From IMG/VR virus record IMGVR_UViG_3300010376_000015, positions 1 to 46,957 of that record: a DNA stretch of 46,957 nt. One strand, written 5' to 3'. The position numbers and the translations under genes were made by a program. Numbering within the stretch: the stretch's first letter is position 1; every line of letters begins with the position of its first letter. The notes beneath the pieces are model-generated. The model saw only the letters and a program-made list of their open reading frames with translations. It was not told where the DNA came from and made no database searches. Below, one piece after another: positions 5,260-16,212 of the stretch. The stretch is from a virus.

Positions 5260-6042
5260 GTGACACCCGACCAAAAGCTACTGAACCGATTGCGCTCAGT
5301 CCGCACTATGCGCGAGCGTGGGGGAACTCCGGGCGAGAGACAAGCAGCAGCTCACTTGCTGCAGAGATTACTCGCCAAGCACAATCTGACCGAGTCCGAC
5401 ATTCCGCGAGACGACGAACGGTCCCACGCACGCAGCTACTGGGGCTACGAGCCACCACCTCGCTACACGCGCAGACGCCCACCACCAAGAAGCTACAACC
5501 GCCCACCACCACGCCAACCACCCCCCAGAACGGGCCCGGACCAATGGGAGGAATTCAGACGACGAGCACAACAGCAAGCCGACGACTTCGCGCAGCAGCA
5601 GCGTGAGCACGCAGCGGGCATGGGCAATCCATTCTCCAGATCAATCCGTACCAAAGGACGAGTCAAATGGCAGGGCGAACTCTTCGTGCGTCTCGCTAAA
5701 GCCTACAAACACCCAACTTCAACCACACAAATCAAAGGTACCAAAGAAACGGAATGGACGGCGTACTTCAGCCTCGAACGCGAGCGAGAGCAATTCGTCG
5801 CTACCTACACGGGAATTACCGTCGAACTCAAACGGAAAGCCACACAATCCAGAAAGTTGCACGCTCCCAAAAACCCCAATGCCTTCAACCGTGCCTACTT
5901 CGCGGGAGCCACACACCGTTTGGTGGAGCGGCTCATGATCCGCGAGTTCCGTGACCCACACGCCAGGAAATACAAGGACAAGAACGCCTACGCAGCGGGT
6001 TACAGCGACGCAGATGCGGTGATATTCGCACGGCGTTCCTAA
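5260..6042 (+). CDS. DUF2786-like protein
   Basis: 'KLLNRLRSVRTMRERGGTPGERQAAAHLLQRLLAKHNL' resembles the DUF2786 N-terminal helix pair (recalled). A Pro/Arg-rich linker follows, then a C-terminal domain. Start placed at GTG 5260 (GGAG SD 7 nt upstream); the ORF is open from GTG 5173. Confidence 0.5.
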   Translation: MTPDQKLLNRLRSVRTMRERGGTPGERQAAAHLLQRLLAKHNLTESDIPRDDERSHARSYWGYEPPPRYTRRRPPPRSYNRPPPRQPPPRTGPDQWEEFRRRAQQQADDFAQQQREHAAGMGNPFSRSIRTKGRVKWQGELFVRLAKAYKHPTSTTQIKGTKETEWTAYFSLEREREQFVATYTGITVELKRKATQSRKLHAPKNPNAFNRAYFAGATHRLVERLMIREFRDPHARKYKDKNAYAAGYSDADAVIFARRS

Positions 6043-6141
6043 ATCGTCCCTCAGCGAAAGAATCGTTCACACGTATATCGACACACATTTTTCGATTCGA
6101 GATCCTACGGACGTCCCAAGAACGCTCAGATTTGACGTCCG

Positions 6142-6784: not shown

Positions 6785-8185
6785 TTATTCCCCGTTAGCC
6801 TTTACGACGATGGAAATCGGTCGTCCACCATCCTTCCGTTGGCGTGTGCTAAGTTCGAGATACGGTGACTTCTCGACTTTCCTTCGGATCACCATATCAG
6901 AGGTTTTCAAGTGTTTTGCAAGTGCTTTTACAGAGGTTCCCAAGTGCTTCAAGCACAGTCGATCGAAGGATGTACGCGGGGGTCGCTTTGGCTTTTTCTC
7001 TACAACCTGCACATCGTATCTTTCATTTCCCCCGAGATACTCCACATCGAAGTCGGGCATCGGCTCGAAGTTGCGGAACTCACGCTGCACCCGCGTAACC
7101 GACGGCTCAGGCTTGTCGAGGTAGAGAGCCGACTCGCACCATCCATGAAATGCTTGTGTGCCCAGCATCCGTTGTCCACCTTGTTTCTCCTGGTTCTTGG
7201 AGTAATGATGGACGATGATGATCCCAACCCCTGTGGCCTCCTTCAGCTTGAGGAGATTTTGTAGGATAGGTCTCACCTCATGGGCATGGTTTTCGTTTGC
7301 CTGTCCCAGCATCAACTGCAAAGGATCGAGAATCAGGAGAATGATTTCCAATTCTACAACCACGTTGGTCATCTTTTCCATTTCCTCAACCGAGGTCAAG
7401 TCAAAGCTTTTACGATTGCGTAGATACAGAGGGACAGAATTAGGAAATACAACAGAAATCCCACTGCGACCAACCTTCTCACTCTCTCCTCCCAACCCTT
7501 TAGCAACTGCCATGTAACGCAGTCGCTTTTTCTGCTCCGCGTCGCTGATCTCCTCCTGAATCAGCAAGACGGGCCCGCGTTGCTTCACGGGGAAATGACC
7601 CAGCACCCCTGTACCTGTGGCCACGGACAGTCCGATGTCATCCGCTAGGTATGACTTGCGGGTCTTTGGCTCACCTGCGATAATCCCATGTGATTGCGCT
7701 GTCCACAATCCCTCGATCATCCATGCGGGATCCCTCGACTCCTGAGCCATGTAGCGATCAAACGGGATGGACCACGGTTCGCTGTGGGCAGTTGATCGTT
7801 TCCGTGCCCGACGACCAGCTCCATTACTTTGAGGATCAGAATCCTGAAGGCGCGCTGCGCCCTTCTTCACATCCGCCCACAGACGAGAACGATCTTCACC
7901 GAACTTGTTCCACACTGTGGACTCAACTAAGATCACGACCTCGCCAGGTTTTAGACCTGCTTCGAGGAGATCGATGATGATTTTCCACAGCACCTTCGAT
8001 CTGTCGCCGTGCGCCTTCCTTGCTCCAAGCTTTGACCGAAGGGCTGGAGAGATGAGATTCTTATAGTTCGTGAAGATTTCCTTCGCGGACGCAGTCGCCA
8101 TGTTCCCAGGCTCTGACTCGCCCATGATAGGGATCTGCACATCACTGAGTATTTCTTCGAGCTTGTCCGCATCTATGATCGCCAC
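6785..8185 (-). CDS. RepA/DnaB-like (AAA_25-type) replicative helicase with C-terminal wHTH-like tail
   Basis: 466 aa with a GTG start (GAGG SD). It has the P-loop variant 'AGEPKTRKS', the Walker B-like 'ILLILDP' and 'IIIVHHYSK'. It is coupled to the upstream primase gene by a 13-nt overlap. Confidence 0.7.
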   Translation of the reverse strand: MAIIDADKLEEILSDVQIPIMGESEPGNMATASAKEIFTNYKNLISPALRSKLGARKAHGDRSKVLWKIIIDLLEAGLKPGEVVILVESTVWNKFGEDRSRLWADVKKGAARLQDSDPQSNGAGRRARKRSTAHSEPWSIPFDRYMAQESRDPAWMIEGLWTAQSHGIIAGEPKTRKSYLADDIGLSVATGTGVLGHFPVKQRGPVLLIQEEISDAEQKKRLRYMAVAKGLGGESEKVGRSGISVVFPNSVPLYLRNRKSFDLTSVEEMEKMTNVVVELEIILLILDPLQLMLGQANENHAHEVRPILQNLLKLKEATGVGIIIVHHYSKNQEKQGGQRMLGTQAFHGWCESALYLDKPEPSVTRVQREFRNFEPMPDFDVEYLGGNERYDVQVVEKKPKRPPRTSFDRLCLKHLGTSVKALAKHLKTSDMVIRRKVEKSPYLELSTRQRKDGGRPISIVVKANGE

Positions 8186-8682
8186 AGTAGTTTCACCTCA
8201 GGCTCCTCAGCGTACTTGTGATTGATAGTTCCCGGTACCCTTAGTACCTGTGTCCGATCCCAACCTCCCTTGTCTGCCCCGATGAGATAGGTCAGTTTCT
8301 GATTGACTGTGCTATGCAGCTCTGGATCCAAGAAGCGATCTAACTCCCACAAAGCTTGATATCTGCCCGGCGACGATTCCCAAGCTATAGACGGCCTCAG
8401 AATGCTGCCGTATTTGGGACCAACCTCAGCAGGATCAACTTTGTCCAGGTCGGCATACAACCACTTGGACGGTAGCATCAGATCCTTGCTACGTCTTGGC
8501 CGACTGAAGATATTGGGACAGAAGTACACATCTCCCAGCTTCGCGTCGGGAATAACAATCTCGTCTCTGCCGAACTTATAGCACAGATCGTGCCACCCAG
8601 TATCATCCTTGAACGAGAGAAATACGAATCCATCCTGCTCCTGCGTCTCCCACACACGAGAGAGCAGGCGGCGTGACTTCAC
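8173..8682 (-). CDS. Primase-polymerase (prim-pol / RepB-type primase) domain protein
   Basis: 169 aa with a GTG start 7 nt after AAGGAGG. Motifs are 'YFCPNIF', 'LYADLD', 'SSPGRYQALWEL' and 'LRVPGTINHK'. Confidence 0.65.
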   Translation of the reverse strand: MKSRRLLSRVWETQEQDGFVFLSFKDDTGWHDLCYKFGRDEIVIPDAKLGDVYFCPNIFSRPRRSKDLMLPSKWLYADLDKVDPAEVGPKYGSILRPSIAWESSPGRYQALWELDRFLDPELHSTVNQKLTYLIGADKGGWDRTQVLRVPGTINHKYAEEPEVKLLWRS

Positions 8683-12031: not shown

Positions 12032-12310
12032 ATGGCGTCCCCTGGTGACGCACGGGGCGATGTGGGAACACACGACGACGACGCGCAACACATAAACCCA
12101 TTGACCGGGGCTCCCATCGAGGATGAGGTCACGATGCACGAGCTCAGGGATGGAATCGACGTAGCGCCCCCACAACACGAGGAGCAGGAAAGTGATAGTG
12201 ATAGAGGGCTGCGATGGCAGCGGCAAAACAACCCTCGCCAACAAACTCAGCGAGGATCTATGTCTGAACATTGGGGTGAGGGGCACAAAGAATCGGGCAG
12301 AGTTGTATAA
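12032..12310 (+). CDS. Small acidic protein (92-aa ORF; the last ~40 aa overlap the kinase gene out of frame)
   Basis: Strong AAGGAGG SD. The first ~53 aa look like a plausible acidic protein. The remainder overlaps 12192..12728 by 119 nt. Confidence 0.45.
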   Translation: MASPGDARGDVGTHDDDAQHINPLTGAPIEDEVTMHELRDGIDVAPPQHEEQESDSDRGLRWQRQNNPRQQTQRGSMSEHWGEGHKESGRVV

Positions 12311-12728
12311 GGTCACCAAACCTGACGCATACCGAGCCCTCGAACGCGCAGTCGCAGGAGACGAGCCTCCACTGATCTGGGATCGGCTGGGCCCAATTAG
12401 CGACCCCATCTATTCCCGCGTACAGGGACGCACGGATGCATTCTCGCCTGCAGAGAAGAAGCATTTCTTCGCCGTCGTCCGCGCGTTAGGGATCCCAGTC
12501 ATAGTGTGCGATGTTCCACTGTATCTCGCCCAAGAAAATGCGAAGAAGGCAGATCAGATGGACGGGGTTCGTCAGCATCTGCCCTTCATCCATGGGCTCT
12601 ATAGAGACTTCATCAACCTTTCCCAGTCGTGGACTCTTCGCTACGACTACGGTGAGGATCGCTACAGCGATCTGCTGTCGGTACTGGAAATGTATACGAG
12701 GAAAAGGAAGGACAGAGAATGGCACTGA
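12192..12728 (+). CDS. Thymidylate/dNMP kinase-like P-loop kinase
   Basis: 178 aa beginning 'MIVIEGCDGSGKTT', a thymidylate-kinase-type P-loop. GTG start 7 nt after GAGGAG; this frame is closed upstream at 12162. Confidence 0.7.
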   Translation: MIVIEGCDGSGKTTLANKLSEDLCLNIGVRGTKNRAELYKVTKPDAYRALERAVAGDEPPLIWDRLGPISDPIYSRVQGRTDAFSPAEKKHFFAVVRALGIPVIVCDVPLYLAQENAKKADQMDGVRQHLPFIHGLYRDFINLSQSWTLRYDYGEDRYSDLLSVLEMYTRKRKDREWH

Positions 12729-13003
12729 TTGTGCTCGACGACTTCAGATGCGGAATGGGAGGGAACCCAGCTCAGACTTCGGCAGCCCTCAAGATCAGCG
12801 AGATTCCCGGTTTCAGCCACGAGGTCATGCTTGTGTTTGGACCCGAGCTGACTCAGGCCGTCTATGACCACTTCGGCGAGATACTGGGGAAAACAGAGCC
12901 GAAGATTGTTGTTCCCGAGTCCCCACAACAAGCTCAACAGGAGGCTGCACAGCATGATCGACTTCGCCGCACTACGAGACCTGCACATATGGAGGGTTCG
13001 TAA
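12719..13003 (+). CDS. Hypothetical protein (94 aa) inside the nucleotide cassette
   Basis: ORF overlapping the kinase end by 10 nt and the MazG start by 50 nt. No motif recognised. Confidence 0.45.
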   Translation: MALIVLDDFRCGMGGNPAQTSAALKISEIPGFSHEVMLVFGPELTQAVYDHFGEILGKTEPKIVVPESPQQAQQEAAQHDRLRRTTRPAHMEGS

Positions 13004-13262
13004 CTTCCCCGACGCCGACGCCGATCAACAACTGCTGGGTATGATCGAGGAGCTGGGTGAGTTAGCACACGCGAATCTGAAGCAGAAACAGGGCATCCGC
13101 GAGAAATCAGCTGCAGACGAACAGGACGCCATCGGAGATATGCTGATCTACTGTCAAGGATACTGTGCTTATCGCGGATGGAACATGGCACAGATCTTCG
13201 AGAGAACGGCAGAGCAGGTAATGCAGCGTGACTGGGTCAAGAACCCGAAGGATGGATCGTGA
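12954..13262 (+). CDS. mazG: MazG-like nucleoside triphosphate pyrophosphohydrolase
   Basis: 102 aa starting at ATG 12954, 9 nt after AGGAGG. 'MIEELGELAHA...EQDAIGDMLIY' is the MazG EExxE...D..D metal-binding pattern. Confidence 0.7.
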   Translation: MIDFAALRDLHIWRVRNFPDADADQQLLGMIEELGELAHANLKQKQGIREKSAADEQDAIGDMLIYCQGYCAYRGWNMAQIFERTAEQVMQRDWVKNPKDGS

Positions 13263-14098
13263 GAACCGCACATTACAAGGACCTGACTGAGCTCTGGCAC
13301 AGAGAGGCGGAGAACATGGTTATGTCCACGAACGAGGAGATAGACTTTGTCTCTGGACTTGATGTCATCCGATATGACAATCTGGTTGGGGCTGACTCGA
13401 TGGCATACAAGTTCGACTTGGGGCGGGATCTTTGGCTCAATCGAAGCAGATTCACCGTGCTCCAGCGTGAGTATCTTGACTTGTCCCAGCTTGAAAGCTT
13501 CCTGGATCGTGCTAAGGAAATTGGACTTGGTGGAGTCAAGCACGGAGTTGTTACAAGTATGCCTTTTCGTGCTCAGCAGCTAAGAGCGAAGAAGCACAGA
13601 TGGGGTGGCTGCATGTCCTCACTCAACTTCCGGGTCTCGAAGACAGGACAACCTGTGCTCATTCTTCAGTCCCGTGTCACCTACATCACCTACATGGGGG
13701 GAGCGGATCTTGCGCTGTGCCACGTTATCGCTCGAGAGATTGGGAAGAGGATTGGCGTTGGACCTGAGGATTTCGCATTCCGATGGAACTGTGCGTCATA
13801 TCAAGCTCACAGTTTCAAGGGTATCCCGTATCTCTTCCGGGCAGGACTTTGGCCTCTCATCGTGGACGAGGAGGCACAGATTGAGTATCCGAGCGACACG
13901 TATCCCGCCCTCCGTCTTATCCGCAAGTGGGCGCTCGGAATCGTCGAGAAGTATCAAAATGGGGTTCCGCTTGAGTCCGAGAAGTATGGTCCGTACAAAC
14001 GAGTCCGAAGACGCTACACGGAGTGGATGAAAGGGGAACCACTCCCGAAGTGTCCTGTGTCTACCCTCACGTTCCAGCCCCTCCGAGAACGAGGGTAA
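13259..14098 (+). CDS. Divergent thymidylate synthase / dNMP hydroxymethylase-fold protein 1
   Basis: 279 aa with a GTGA overlap to the upstream gene. 'WGGCMSSLNFRV' looks like the Cys strand, 'LILQSRVTYITYMGGADLALCHVIA' the RS.D region (degenerate), and 'FRWNCASYQAHSF' the strand equivalent to 'WNVGSLHVYSRHF' in T4 gp42 as I recall it. Confidence 0.45.
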   Translation: MRTAHYKDLTELWHREAENMVMSTNEEIDFVSGLDVIRYDNLVGADSMAYKFDLGRDLWLNRSRFTVLQREYLDLSQLESFLDRAKEIGLGGVKHGVVTSMPFRAQQLRAKKHRWGGCMSSLNFRVSKTGQPVLILQSRVTYITYMGGADLALCHVIAREIGKRIGVGPEDFAFRWNCASYQAHSFKGIPYLFRAGLWPLIVDEEAQIEYPSDTYPALRLIRKWALGIVEKYQNGVPLESEKYGPYKRVRRRYTEWMKGEPLPKCPVSTLTFQPLRERG

Positions 14099-14115
14099 AA
14101 AAACACCAAAGCTGT

Positions 14116-14144
14116 TTGACCCTCGGTCATCCAGGCACGACAAT
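14116..14144 (+). promoter_or_regulatory. Sigma-70/SigA-like promoter TTGACC-N17-GACAAT
   Basis: TTGACC at 14116-14121, a 17-nt spacer and GACAAT at 14139-14144, in the 75-bp gap after TS-like 1. It has the same boxes as the 1865 and 3843 sites. Confidence 0.5.
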
Positions 14145-14173
14145 ATACATACGACGCGAAAGGGGCGCTGGAA

Positions 14174-14341
14174 ATGCCAGACCCGAAGAACGCCGTGGTA
14201 GAACTCCATGTCAAGATCAACAACCAGCAAACGTCGCCAGGTGTGCTCAAGCAGAAGTTGGAATCTGCTGTAACGAGCATTCCCTTGGAACCGAATGAAA
14301 CCGTCGAAGTGCTGAACTACTTGGCGACAGAAGCTGCGTAG
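14174..14341 (+). CDS. Small hypothetical protein (55 aa)
   Basis: Read by hand. ATG after AAAGGGG. It fills the gap downstream of the predicted promoter. Confidence 0.45.
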   Translation: MPDPKNAVVELHVKINNQQTSPGVLKQKLESAVTSIPLEPNETVEVLNYLATEAA

Positions 14342-14351
14342 AAAGGCAATC

Positions 14352-14783
14352 ATGGTGAAGGCGAAGGAAACAGCAAAAACCAAAAAGAAGTTCGATCCCG
14401 AGGAGTACATGAGTACTGCTGTGCTCGAGCTCGACGAGAAGATCGAAGCGATTGACCGTCGACTCGCACCCTATCAGGATCTCATCAACACCAAGAACAA
14501 GTTGATGGCTGCTAGGCGCGCACTCCTCGGGAAGAACTCCGCAACTGGAGGAACAGGAACTCGGATTACGCTCGAGGAGGTTGTCGACTATCTCGACAAG
14601 AATCCAGGCACGACCGCGTCCCTGATCGCCGAGGAGTTCGGCGTGCAGCTTAGCACCATCACGTCGCACGTCTACAGGAATCCCGGTCGATTCGTCAAGA
14701 AGGACGGGCGTCTGTGGAAGCGTGATCCCGAGGCAGGAGTCAACGGTCCTGATGATGTAGAGGAGGAGGCAGATGACGAGTGA
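14352..14783 (+). CDS. Winged-helix DNA-binding protein (143 aa)
   Basis: Lys-rich N-terminus, a coiled-coil segment, the wHTH-like 'ITLEEVVDYLDKNPGTTASLIAEEFGVQLSTITSHVYRNPGRFVKKDGRLW' and an acidic tail. Confidence 0.5.
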   Translation: MVKAKETAKTKKKFDPEEYMSTAVLELDEKIEAIDRRLAPYQDLINTKNKLMAARRALLGKNSATGGTGTRITLEEVVDYLDKNPGTTASLIAEEFGVQLSTITSHVYRNPGRFVKKDGRLWKRDPEAGVNGPDDVEEEADDE

Positions 14784-15006
14784 CCCCGATGCTCTCGTAG
14801 TGACCTACGCTGACATCTACGGCGGATACCAGAATCACTATGCGCTCGTGGACAAGTACACCCGAGAGATCATCATGCAGGATCGCAGCAAGTCCGCCGT
14901 AATCGCGGAAGCGCAGCGCCGTAAGGGATGGAAGCCTATCGATGGGGATGAGCGAACGTATGGAAAGCAGACCGTCGAGCACTCCAGAATTAGGGAGGTC
15001 AGATGA
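14773..15006 (+). CDS. Hypothetical protein (77 aa)
   Basis: ATG after a GGAGGAGG SD. It overlaps both neighbours by a few nt. Confidence 0.55.
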   Translation: MTSDPDALVVTYADIYGGYQNHYALVDKYTREIIMQDRSKSAVIAEAQRRKGWKPIDGDERTYGKQTVEHSRIREVR

Positions 15007-15785
15007 TCGATCTGTTCCATGAGATAGGGAAGATCCTACTCGAAGATGGTGTGGTCGTTGAGGTACCCACGTGGCAAGCGTTAGATGTGACGGACAAACC
15101 ACAAGGCAGGACATACGAGACTCTCAACATGTCCTTCCAATACATGATTCCTAATGGCATGAAGGCCTTACAGCATGACTGCGATCCCAATCTGCCCTGG
15201 GCAGAGAATCAGTTTCAGGAGCGTGTATCCGGGGAGCCACTCAATCCGGGCAACACGTATTGGGAATGGCCGTGGTACACGGGCAACGTCGAGGAGCACA
15301 AGCCTCAGGGACAGTTCAGCCACACGTACATGGAGCGGTACTTCCCAAAGCAAGCAGGCAACGACGTTCTCGAGGGCGACGACACCATCTACAAACACGG
15401 CATCCGTTACCCATACGGGGATCTGGACGACGTGGTCAATCTGCTTAGCAGAGAGCCTAATACTCGACAGGCATACTTGCCCGTGTTTTTCCCTGAGGAC
15501 ACAGGGGCTGTTCACAAAGAGAGGATCCCCTGCTCTATCGGCTATTGGTTCTACATGAGAGAAGGTGTGCTTGGCATCACATACTTCATTCGATCCTGCG
15601 ACTTCTTCCGCCATTTCCGTGACGACGTCTACATGACTTGTCGTCTAGTACAATGGGCTCTCGATCAGCTTAGGGACGGGGAGGGCGTGTGGAAAGACGT
15701 AGCGCCCGGCAAGCTCATCATGCACATCGGATCGCTCCACTGCTTCGAGGGGGATCTTGCGAAACTGAGGAGGGAGTATGGCTAG
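15003..15785 (+). CDS. Thymidylate synthase / dCMP-dUMP hydroxymethylase-fold protein 2
   Basis: 260 aa. It has 'EPNTRQAYLPVFFP', the catalytic-Cys strand 'RIPCSIGYWFY', 'FIRSCDFFRHFRDDVY' (RS.D motif) and 'IMHIGSLHCFEGD'. It looks closer to the gp42-type hydroxymethylase pattern than to canonical ThyA (recalled). Confidence 0.65.
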   Translation: MIDLFHEIGKILLEDGVVVEVPTWQALDVTDKPQGRTYETLNMSFQYMIPNGMKALQHDCDPNLPWAENQFQERVSGEPLNPGNTYWEWPWYTGNVEEHKPQGQFSHTYMERYFPKQAGNDVLEGDDTIYKHGIRYPYGDLDDVVNLLSREPNTRQAYLPVFFPEDTGAVHKERIPCSIGYWFYMREGVLGITYFIRSCDFFRHFRDDVYMTCRLVQWALDQLRDGEGVWKDVAPGKLIMHIGSLHCFEGDLAKLRREYG

Positions 15786-16212
15786 AATCTCTCGTGACGA
15801 TCTTTACATGGGACTTGCTCAGGAGTTCGCATTGAGAAGCACTTGTCTCCGAGGGCATGTAGGCTGTGTGATCGTCCGTGACAACCATCTCATTGGCGGT
15901 GGTTACAACGGTGCCCCGCCCCACATGCCCCATTGCGAAGAGATAGGCTGCGAAACCGAGGGAGACGTTGACCCCGGGTGCAAACGTGCGATACACGCCG
16001 AGCTCAATGCTGTCGCATTCTCCGCGCGCTTCGGAGTCTCGACGGACGAAGGAACGGTGTATTGCACGCACGCGACGTGCCGCGCCTGTGCCCAGGCGTT
16101 AGCAAGCGCAGGAATCGTCGAGTTCCATTATGAGGTTCCCTACCGTGACGAAGCAGGATTGAACTTACTCAACGAAGCAGGAATCGAGGTGTTCAGGTAT
16201 GGAAGATCTTGA
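15778..16212 (+). CDS. dCMP deaminase (CDA-fold zinc deaminase)
   Basis: 144 aa. 'HAELNAV' (H-A-E zinc and catalytic motif) and 'CRAC' (C-x-x-C). The N-terminal 'LAQEFALRSTC...VGCVIV' is typical of dCMP deaminases. Confidence 0.75.
   Translation: MARISRDDLYMGLAQEFALRSTCLRGHVGCVIVRDNHLIGGGYNGAPPHMPHCEEIGCETEGDVDPGCKRAIHAELNAVAFSARFGVSTDEGTVYCTHATCRACAQALASAGIVEFHYEVPYRDEAGLNLLNEAGIEVFRYGRS

Follow-up and report, generated by a model that had tools for sequence, protein, structure and literature searches.

Gene organization

The metagenomic phage contig IMGVR_UViG_3300010376_000015 of IMG/VR, analysed here over its whole length of 46,957 nucleotides (the window), carries a cassette of nucleotide-metabolism genes that is built around two divergent proteins with the thymidylate synthase (TS) fold. 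One of these, protein (d), is a homologue of the cytosine-type TS enzymes, while the other, protein (c), represents the new element at this locus: a superfamily that has the TS fold, is unannotated except for one label in a sister subfamily, and is obligatorily paired with a cytosine-type TS. Replication and nucleotide-metabolism genes occupy the + strand of the window up to about 22 kb, and the structural genes lie beyond, on the - strand. The cassette consists of five open reading frames (ORFs), encoding a kinase (a), a MazG-like pyrophosphatase (b), the two TS-fold proteins and a zinc deaminase (e) (Table 1). The ORF listing places all five, with the motifs quoted for them, on the + strand at the coordinates given in the original prediction for this DNA. 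They are genuine genes and not chance reading frames, since (c) has 292 and (d) 2766 homologues in the database and the gene order is kept in about 40 loci. The five-gene set thus stands, but the module runs on into a gene that the prediction had left out, which encodes a fusion of a uracil-DNA glycosylase (UDG), an exonuclease and a family-A DNA polymerase (UDG-PolA).

Table 1. Genes of the cassette and their immediate neighbours in the window
Gene product	Positions	Strand	Motif or match
(a) P-loop dNMP kinase-like protein, 178 aa	12192-12728	+	MIVIEGCDGSGKTT
(b) MazG-like all-alpha NTP pyrophosphatase	12954-13262 (ORF open from 12864)	+	'MIEELGELAHA...DAIGDMLIY'
(c) cryptic TS-fold protein, Muddy gp47 family (phrog_13667), 279 aa	13259-14098	+	WGGCMSSLNFRV, 'LILQSRVTYI', FRWNCASYQAHSF
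Interleaved accessory ORF, 143 aa	14352-14783	+	weak winged-helix match
Small neighbouring ORFs	14174-14341 and 14773-15006	+	not conserved
(d) divergent cytosine-type TS homologue, 260 aa	15003-15785	+	'RIPCSIGYWFY', FIRSCDFFRHFRDDVY, IMHIGSLHCFEGD
(e) dCMP-deaminase-family zinc deaminase, 144 aa	15778-16212	+	'HAELNAV', 'CRAC'
Family-4 UDG / 3'-5' exonuclease / family-A DNA polymerase fusion, 797 aa	16526-18919	+	Pfam

Protein (d), a cytosine-type TS homologue

Protein (d) matches phrog_160 'thymidylate synthase' with an E-value of 5.8e-26. It falls under the Pfam TS gathering threshold (18.2 against 24.3 bits), although many of its relatives are above it. In a sequence search of the PDB, the top match is the CMP hydroxymethylase MilA (E 8e-6) and the second is the N229D mutant of L. 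casei TS, which methylates dCMP. The AlphaFold2 model (pLDDT 82.7) gives 396 Foldseek matches in the PDB at E<=1e-3, the best of which are TS and MilA (TM about 0.65, E 3e-11). The original prediction held that both (c) and (d) have the TS fold and that neither is a canonical ThyA, and it proposed a structure search and inspection of the base-discriminating residues as a check. The models return TS-family matches for both proteins, and both have an Asp at the position of E. coli Asn177, which sets them apart from canonical ThyA.

Residues of (d) were mapped with MAFFT onto E. coli ThyA, T4 gp42 and Xp12 TS, and were compared in an alignment of 35 family members. The equivalents of E. coli C146, R166, S167 and D169 are C177, R197, S198 and D200, all of which are invariant in the family, and the equivalents of R126 and H207 are also kept. 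The Asn177 position is occupied by D208, an invariant Asp that is likewise present in gp42 and Xp12 TS, and three independent alignments (with L. casei N229D TS, with MilA, and the MAFFT alignment) agree on this assignment. In published work, replacement of Asn177 by Asp switches TS to dCMP. Other substitutions, in E. coli numbering, are His147 to Ser178, Leu143 to Arg174, which is invariant, and Arg127 to Gln156. Of the canonical ThyA features Asn177 and His147, therefore, (d) has neither. The D169N signature of the 5-hydroxy-dCMP synthases is also absent, since D200 is retained, and R155 and S198 are of the deoxy type by the criteria established for MilA. Because of the Asp at the Asn177 position, these two deoxy-type residues and the kept TS catalytic residues, (d) is predicted to be a dCMP-type, deoxy-specific C5 one-carbon transferase.

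The chain of (d) ends 14 residues past the H207 equivalent, while E. coli ThyA and Xp12 TS run more than 50 residues further. The C-terminal lid that closes over folate in ThyA is absent from (d). The residue at the Leu143 position, where Asp or Glu predicts a hydroxymethyl product and a bulky hydrophobic residue predicts a methyl product, varies among the proteins compared by alignment: it is Asn in Xp12 TS, a proven methylase, Asp in T4 gp42, Arg174 in (d) and W115 in (c).

Protein (c), a deeply diverged branch of the TS superfamily

Sequence models do not recognize protein (c). Neither Pfam nor NCBIfam gives a match, Pfam is likewise empty for all of its 113 diverse relatives, and searches of the PDB by sequence, with the single sequence or with profiles of 32 and 113 sequences, return chance-level matches only. 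The fold emerges from the AlphaFold2 model, which has a pLDDT of 92.6. Each of the top 50 Foldseek matches in the PDB is to a TS, a dCMP hydroxymethylase, MilA or a dCMP hydroxylase (E 1.9e-6, probability 1.00, TM 0.40-0.48, about 10% identity). MilA ranks first, and the HY126 dCMP hydroxylase AfhB, T4 dCMP hydroxymethylase and ThyA are among the matching structures. In the BFVD structure database the two best matches are uncharacterised, and those below them are TS or gp42.

An exhaustive profile search collects homologues of (c) in 238 clusters at 50% identity. Among 113 cluster members Y72, G116, C118, R139 and W176 are invariant, and R64, S138 and D150 are at least 97% conserved. Aligned by hhalign with TS references, (c) reaches 5% probability and falls into the same register each time, in which C118 corresponds to C146, R139 to R166, V140 to S167, Y142 to D169, D150 to N177, W176 to W201 and Q182 to H207. 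In this register all 113 members of the superfamily have both the Cys and the R166-equivalent Arg, and 110 of the 113 have Asp at the Asn177 position. Where TS enzymes have the R-S-x-D motif, (c) reads S138-R139-V-T-Y142, so that the loss of this motif noted from the sequence at the outset is confirmed. An alignment of the narrow (c) profile with the (d) family finds nothing; broader profiles give weak matches in a consistent register.

A sister subfamily of (c), which includes Serbin gp51, the proteins in the same slot of Polewnik and CPAS-15, and a protein of MW202455, is linked to it by hhalign at 97.5% probability (E 8e-12), even though the two subfamilies are only about 20% identical. The sister subfamily retains G-x-C-M ... 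Y-R-S-T-E ... A-D-L, and it matches the TS references in the same register as (c), at an E-value of 7e-4 and 26% probability. The D169 position is Tyr142 in (c) and Glu in the sister subfamily, neither of which is the Asn of D169N. Even with this divergence, (c) is a branch of the TS superfamily in which the nucleophile, the arginine at R166 and the cytosine-type Asp persist.

The folate site is a different matter. The equivalent of helix B in (c) has no conserved Glu that would be the counterpart of E58. By the order of secondary-structure elements, about 27 residues stand in (c) where ThyA has about 62, and (c) thus apparently lacks a segment of some 35 residues bearing W80, W83 and Y94, as judged from this order and not from coordinates. 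Since D169 is replaced, E58 has no equivalent and the loop segment is apparently lost, we infer that (c) does not use folate in the canonical way.

Two labels in deposited genomes touch this superfamily. For the protein in the (c) slot of CPAS-15 (L045:4184-4933) the record gives the name 'colanic acid biosynthesis glycosyltransferase WcaC'. In a search of six sequences the (c) profile picks it out at E 3e-20, Pfam recognizes nothing in it, and the glycosyltransferase name is probably wrong. The (c) equivalent of MW202455 (L046:2909-3679) is labelled 'pyrimidine hmase synthase' by its depositors, which is the sole functional hint for the superfamily among the records examined. An assignment of (c) to the thymidine-hypermodification enzymes of the aGPT-pyrophosphorylase type was considered and rejected, because there is no Pfam match and the fold matches are to TS.

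Conservation of the module

The cassette is no oddity of this contig. It forms a conserved core shared by a large group of phages, with cultured ones such as Muddy among them. Related loci were collected with a 32-sequence alignment of (c), and the full gene order was judged on those contigs long enough to show it. About 40 related loci share one fixed order: kinase, MazG-like protein, (c), (d), deaminase and UDG-PolA. The longer order, with the less constant members in parentheses, is SNF2 helicase, (kinase), MazG-like protein, (c), (small ORFs), (d), deaminase, UDG-PolA, PD-(D/E)XK nuclease and Sak4-like ATPase. In all (d)-type modules examined, a gene of the (c) superfamily lies directly upstream of (d) and frequently overlaps its start. 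The deaminase and the kinase are common but not universal.

Cultured carriers include Mycobacterium phage Muddy (gp50-gp42, in which gp47 is (c) and gp46 is (d)) and Zuko (gp72-gp81). Further carriers are found in 68 Gordonia phage records and among Microbacterium, Curtobacterium and other Mycobacterium phages. In Serratia phage Serbin, Brevundimonas phage Polewnik and Clostridium phage CPAS-15 the (c) slot holds a member of the sister subfamily; the last two retain both genes of the pair, with no deaminase annotated. Two relatives have ThyX inside the module, at L019:4668-5573 and, in MW202455, at L046:1839-2495 (198 bits), which gives three TS-type enzymes in one cassette. In MW202455 no deaminase is annotated in the module and a DNA ligase lies between (d) and the polymerase, while in L019 the deaminase is present. 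In these ThyX-bearing relatives (c) and (d) would not be needed for dTMP. Since the pair is kept alongside ThyX and also in relatives without an annotated deaminase, it is probably not merely a source of thymidylate.

In the nearest relatives, L014-L017, (c) is 79-84% identical to the window protein, (d) 48-66% and the polymerase 55-64%; when the deaminase and the MazG-like protein are counted in with these last two, the range is 45-66%. Protein (c) is thus the best-conserved protein of the module among close relatives, as a result of either exceptional constraint or recent exchange.

Other genes of the module

The kinase (a) matches phrog_761 'thymidylate kinase' over its full length (E 1.1e-10). 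Pfam and NCBIfam recognize only the P-loop, below cut-off, and a PDB sequence search gives nothing informative. Its slot is that of the annotated thymidylate kinases Muddy gp49, Zuko gp73 and Serbin gp53. The kinase is undetected in about one-third of the related loci that cover this slot, and seven loci (L022-L026, L028 and L038) lack it with flanking genes present on both sides. In L022 the slot (5760-6068) holds a DUF6378 protein of about 105 aa, which has homologues in at least L023-L025.

The MazG-like protein (b) matches phrog_715 and phrog_1992 'MazG-like pyrophosphatase' at E-values of about 8e-6, and its EExxE and ExxD motifs are readable. Its true start is probably M31, at 12954. The window protein has no Pfam match and no PDB sequence match. 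The protein in its slot matches PRA-PH in Polewnik (E 7.6e-5) and dUTPase_2 in CPAS-15 (E 1.4e-11), and dUTPase_2 is weakly or faintly recognized in L011-L013.

The deaminase (e) is a member of PF00383 (E 5.7e-18, 65.1 bits against a cut-off of 25), matches MafB19-deam (E 1.8e-11) and phrog_174 'dCMP deaminase' (E 9e-47), and has both zinc-binding motifs, HAE and CxxC. It lies immediately 3' of (d) in nearly all relatives. At least some phage deaminases convert 5-methyl or 5-hydroxymethyl dC nucleotides to dTTP or 5-hydroxymethyl-dU (5hmdU). The preference of (e) among dCMP and 5-methyl or 5-hydroxymethyl dC nucleotides is not predictable from its sequence; the substrate specificity of these deaminases is reported to be polyphyletic (bioRxiv 10.1101/2024.12.05.627091).

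In the UDG-PolA fusion, Pfam recognizes UDG (1.3e-31), DNA_pol_A_exo1 (4.6e-26) and DNA_pol_A (3.1e-88). The best PDB matches of the UDG domain are the active family-4 enzymes TM0511 and T. thermophilus UDG (E about 1e-33), and its motifs are intact: GEAPG, FVGxAG, NxVKCRP, HPAA and the four Fe-S Cys residues. UDG-PolA comes after the deaminase in all relatives. In L010, a distant relative, a UDG is encoded by a separate gene between (c) and the TS. UDG-PolA fusions with an intact UDG are otherwise known from the 5-hydroxymethyluracil (5hmU) phages SPO1, SP-10 and SP-15.

The interleaved ORFs had been suggested as the possible source of a further modification step. They are poorly conserved and are unlikely to be pathway enzymes. 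Only the 143-aa ORF, which matches HTH_24 below cut-off (E 0.0016), recurs; about half of the related loci have a homologue of it in the interval from (c) to (d). The small ORFs of 55, 77, 94, 51 and 106 aa are each found in at most one relative, and as they are not conserved they were rejected as hidden decorating enzymes. The larger ORFs that occupy the gaps in relatives encode a LAGLIDADG endonuclease, a DUF6378 protein, a collagen-like repeat and similar products; in L016, a close relative, the LAGLIDADG homing-endonuclease ORF (7765-8205) lies between (c) and (d).

The general scans of the window covered its 30 larger ORFs. Within this set no glycosyltransferase or other decorating enzyme was recognized, which agrees with the original prediction. 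Nor was there a dihydrofolate reductase (DHFR), a dTTPase, dTMPase or other thymidylate-exclusion function, or a 5hmU kinase or other downstream enzyme among the ORFs scanned. Several of the large ORFs beyond the cassette matched nothing and, like the smaller ORFs, are unassigned.

Elsewhere in the window, the RepB-primase/AAA_25 helicase gene (6785-8682, - strand), which is one ORF of about 630 aa in relatives, is broken into two ORFs, 8173-8682 and 6785-8185, that overlap and are read in different frames. In a tblastn search with this protein, residues 10-163 align in frame -2 and residues 185-633 in frame -1. This is a frameshift, and it may reflect an assembly error, a true split or a programmed event.

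Relation to known systems

The nearest published analogue of the module is that of Xp12, PaMx74 and the MetaGPA contigs, which is linked to C5-modified cytosine, rather than that of T4. Asp177 TS homologues with a deaminase, PRA-PH and PolA/exonuclease in cis are enriched in experimentally selected cytosine-modified metavirome contigs (bioRxiv 10.1101/2024.12.05.627091; eLife PMC8670742). Five of seven such homologues made 5-methyl-dCMP, and a residue other than His at TS position 147 tracks modified contigs. As in the window, the Asp177 TS homologue directly adjoins a dCMP-deaminase-family gene, an all-alpha NTP pyrophosphatase lies upstream, a family-A polymerase and an exonuclease lie alongside, and the deaminase may produce dTTP from the modified dC pool. 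Xp12 and PaMx74 differ in that DHFR is encoded beside the deaminase and the TS retains the ThyA-like C-terminal lid. No second TS homologue is annotated in these two phages, and tblastn gives no match to (c) in them, although the (c) profile was not run on their flanking hypothetical ORFs. The window, for its part, has no DHFR and a truncated (d), and its second TS-fold gene is obligatory.

The original prediction likened the cassette to that of T4 (gp1, gp56, gp42, Cd and Td). The likeness holds for the enzyme categories. Each genome encodes a dNMP kinase, an all-alpha enzyme resembling dCTPase/dUTPase, a TS homologue of the Asp type and a dCMP deaminase, and each has two proteins of the TS fold. 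Both gp42 and (d) are without the ThyA C-terminal lid. The likeness does not extend further, since the window has no Asn-type equivalent of Td, both of its TS-fold proteins being of the Asp type, and no glucosyltransferase was found. At the Leu143 position gp42 has Asp where (d) has Arg, (c) has no sequence-detectable relation to gp42, and the window polymerase is a family-A UDG fusion, unlike the family-B enzyme of T4.

For the proposed loss of folate use in (c) there is a precedent. TS-fold enzymes can swap folate for flavin and hydroxylate dCMP (NAR 2026, PMC13326640). These 5-hydroxy-dCMP synthases (RB69 gp48, DLP3 gp80 and HY126 AfhB) have dropped folate while keeping the chemistry of the Cys and Asp177, and AfhB is among the best structural matches of (c) (9iqu, E 2.5e-6, TM 0.47/0.58). 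They are, however, recognizable as TS homologues by sequence and have the diagnostic D169N, whereas (c) has Tyr at position 169 (Glu in the sister subfamily), is invisible to the Pfam TS model and is not accompanied by glycosyltransferases.

Like (d), MilA, the CMP 5-hydroxymethylase of the mildiomycin pathway, has Asp where E. coli ThyA has Asn177, and both proteins have an Arg two positions beyond the D169 equivalent. MilA is ribo-specific through K133' and A176, where (d) has the deoxy-type R155 and S198. It also differs from (d) in its Asp at the Leu143 position and its large C-terminal helical domain.

Proposed pathway

We read the region as one half of a conserved phage replication module, the half concerned with nucleotide metabolism, in which a C5-modified deoxycytidylate would be made before replication and fed to the phage polymerase. 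The gene identities are those described above, and the substrates and products are our inference from them. That cytosine is modified pre-replicatively at C5, with (d) as a folate-dependent dCMP methylase or hydroxymethylase and (c) as a second, catalytic, folate-independent TS-fold partner, is a proposal to which we give an even chance.

In the first step of such a pathway (b) would return dCTP and dUTP to monophosphates, depleting the canonical dCTP and supplying dCMP. Protein (d) would then use methylene-tetrahydrofolate to add a one-carbon group at C5 of dCMP, giving 5-methyl-dCMP or 5-hydroxymethyl-dCMP. Which of the two is formed cannot be called from the sequence, but hydroxymethyl is slightly favoured by the loss of the lid and the absence of DHFR. 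In the third step (c), as the obligate paralogous partner, would act on a cytosine deoxynucleotide in a Cys-dependent manner and without a canonical folate site, possibly as a heterodimer with (d). It might introduce another C5 group from another co-substrate, for which the flavin-dependent 5-hydroxy-dCMP synthases offer a comparison, or it might process the product of (d). The more specific idea that a non-folate co-substrate allows (c) to place a so-far-undescribed group on C5 of deoxycytidylate, or to convert the (d) product, is unlikely. The kinase would phosphorylate the modified dNMP, the deaminase would divert part of the dC pool, modified or not, to dUMP, dTMP or dTTP, and UDG-PolA would replicate the genome and exclude uracil.

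Evidence for and against cytosine modification

The suggestion in the original prediction that the phage makes a non-canonical pyrimidine remains reasonable in view of the pair of Asp177 proteins and the MetaGPA-like neighbourhood, while modified DNA is unproven and palindrome avoidance points weakly the other way; its interpretation as a whole is partly supported.

Several observations weigh against cytosine modification by this module, and the first of them concern the DNA itself. TTAA does not occur in the window, where 24 copies are expected (z -5.7). The rare 6-bp palindromes, as observed over expected, are ACGCGT (0/14), TGATCA (0/11), CGATCG (4/16), TTCGAA (2/12) and AACGTT (2/10). Muddy shares part of this set, avoiding CGCGCG (0/11), ATCGAT (0/11), CGATCG and ACGCGT. 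The C-containing palindromes that are avoided in the window and in Muddy would normally be protected by 5-methylcytosine (5mC) or 5-hydroxymethylcytosine, and the summed ratio of observed to expected is 0.74 in the window and 0.80 in Muddy, compared with 0.88 in the 5mC controls Xp12 and PaMx74. The test is a weak one, as these fully 5mC-substituted controls avoid palindromes too, and the avoidance is a mild sign that the cytosines are not fully protected. Several of the avoided palindromes are sites of actinobacterial enzymes (MluI and NruI), a hint as to which hosts the phage may infect and that it meets type II restriction. Literature searches on modified DNA in actinophages, including Muddy and the Gordonia phages, found no such report, although Muddy and the Gordonia phages are widely handled, and the case for modified DNA is at present one made from genes.

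Other adverse points concern the two proteins. The Arg at the Leu143 position of (d) fits neither the hydrophobic pattern of the methylases nor the Asp/Glu pattern of the hydroxymethylases, and the lid on which the leaning towards hydroxymethyl partly depends is also missing from short archaeal TS proteins. The link between (c) and TS consists of structure plus weak profile alignments, and the loss of the folate loop was read from secondary-structure order. Identity to the window proteins among the closest relatives is about 80% for (c) and about 50% for (d), which is an ill fit for tightly co-evolving subunits.

One alternative is that the DNA is canonical and that the module supplies thymidylate and keeps out uracil. 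Here (d) would convert dCMP to 5-methyl-dCMP and the deaminase would carry this on to dTMP or dTTP, bypassing dUMP; the kinase would be a dTMP kinase, the MazG-like protein a dUTPase, UDG would clear stray uracil, and (c) would assist or regulate. Depositors of cultured relatives annotate just such a set (thymidylate kinase, dUTPase, thymidylate synthase and dCMP deaminase), the intact UDG implies concern over uracil, and both the palindrome avoidance in the window and Muddy and the silence of the literature on odd DNA in Muddy would follow. The preprint cited above proposes a route from 5-methyl-dC to dT, as a dTTP-making side branch in phages whose cytosine is fully replaced by 5mC, and scores as unmodified the contigs of nearly half of the TS homologues that are of the Asp type or otherwise not of the dT type. 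A route serving dTMP only, however, leaves a second, highly constrained Cys/Asp TS-fold enzyme unexplained. It also sits badly with the ThyX carriers MW202455, in whose module no deaminase is annotated, and L019, in which one is present, since both keep (c) and (d), and with Polewnik and CPAS-15, which keep the pair with no annotated deaminase. The enrichment of the same neighbourhood in experimentally selected cytosine-modified contigs tells against it as well, and on balance we consider canonical DNA somewhat unlikely.

A further alternative concerns (c) only and is compatible with the proposed pathway. In it (c) is a non-catalytic TS-fold subunit or regulator, for example a heterodimer partner that lends phosphate-binding residues or a lid to (d), or a nucleotide sensor. 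TS active sites span the dimer interface, (c) always adjoins (d), and the frequent overlap of their genes suggests translational coupling. Protein (d) has lost R127 (Q156) and the lid; (c) retains a K/R-R/H pair at the equivalent site, together with an additional C-terminal helical region that is conserved and rich in Arg. A pure scaffold, however, would not need the Cys, Arg and Asp, and these are conserved as in active TS enzymes, at the frequencies given above, across subfamilies that are about 20% identical. A non-catalytic role for (c) is decidedly unlikely.

Replacement of thymine as in SPO1, in which (d) would make 5-hydroxymethyl-dCMP, the deaminase would convert it to 5-hydroxymethyl-dUMP for phosphorylation and incorporation in place of dTMP, and UDG-PolA would enforce the choice, is very improbable: the intact-UDG PolA fusions of SPO1, SP-10 and SP-15, with their proposed link to uracil or 5hmU handling, the seven phage deaminases that gave 5hmdU from a 5-hydroxymethyl-dC pool in the preprint, and the lack of a lid on (d) and of DHFR in the genome, as expected of hydroxymethylases, speak for it, but no thymidylate-exclusion function, 5hmU kinase or other downstream enzyme was recognized among the scanned ORFs, two relatives have a dTMP-making ThyX, and in some relatives the deaminase is not annotated.

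Implications

The TS superfamily is the entry point to nearly all known pre-replicative pyrimidine modifications of phages, which comprise methyl, hydroxymethyl and, since 2025-26, hydroxyl groups. The (c) superfamily adds to it a further branch, which sequence models fail to recognize and which is firmly coupled to a cytosine-type TS within a replication module of wide distribution. This module is present in easily obtained cultured phages, among them Muddy, which is given to patients. If the DNA is canonical, the module would instead represent a dUMP-independent thymidylate route with an unexplained accessory enzyme. If (c) does place a so-far-undescribed group on deoxycytidylate or convert the (d) product, an undescribed cytosine modification would be present in actinophages of the Muddy type, in relatives of Serbin and in a large clade of soil phages of roughly 47 kb. 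Should the module modify cytosine at all, the annotation of dozens of deposited genomes (85 records), in which the gene is now 'hypothetical' or even 'glycosyltransferase', would change. Such a modification would be relevant to the evasion of restriction and CRISPR and to the innate immune sensing of therapeutic phage DNA, and the module may be a source of a new nucleotide-modifying enzyme.

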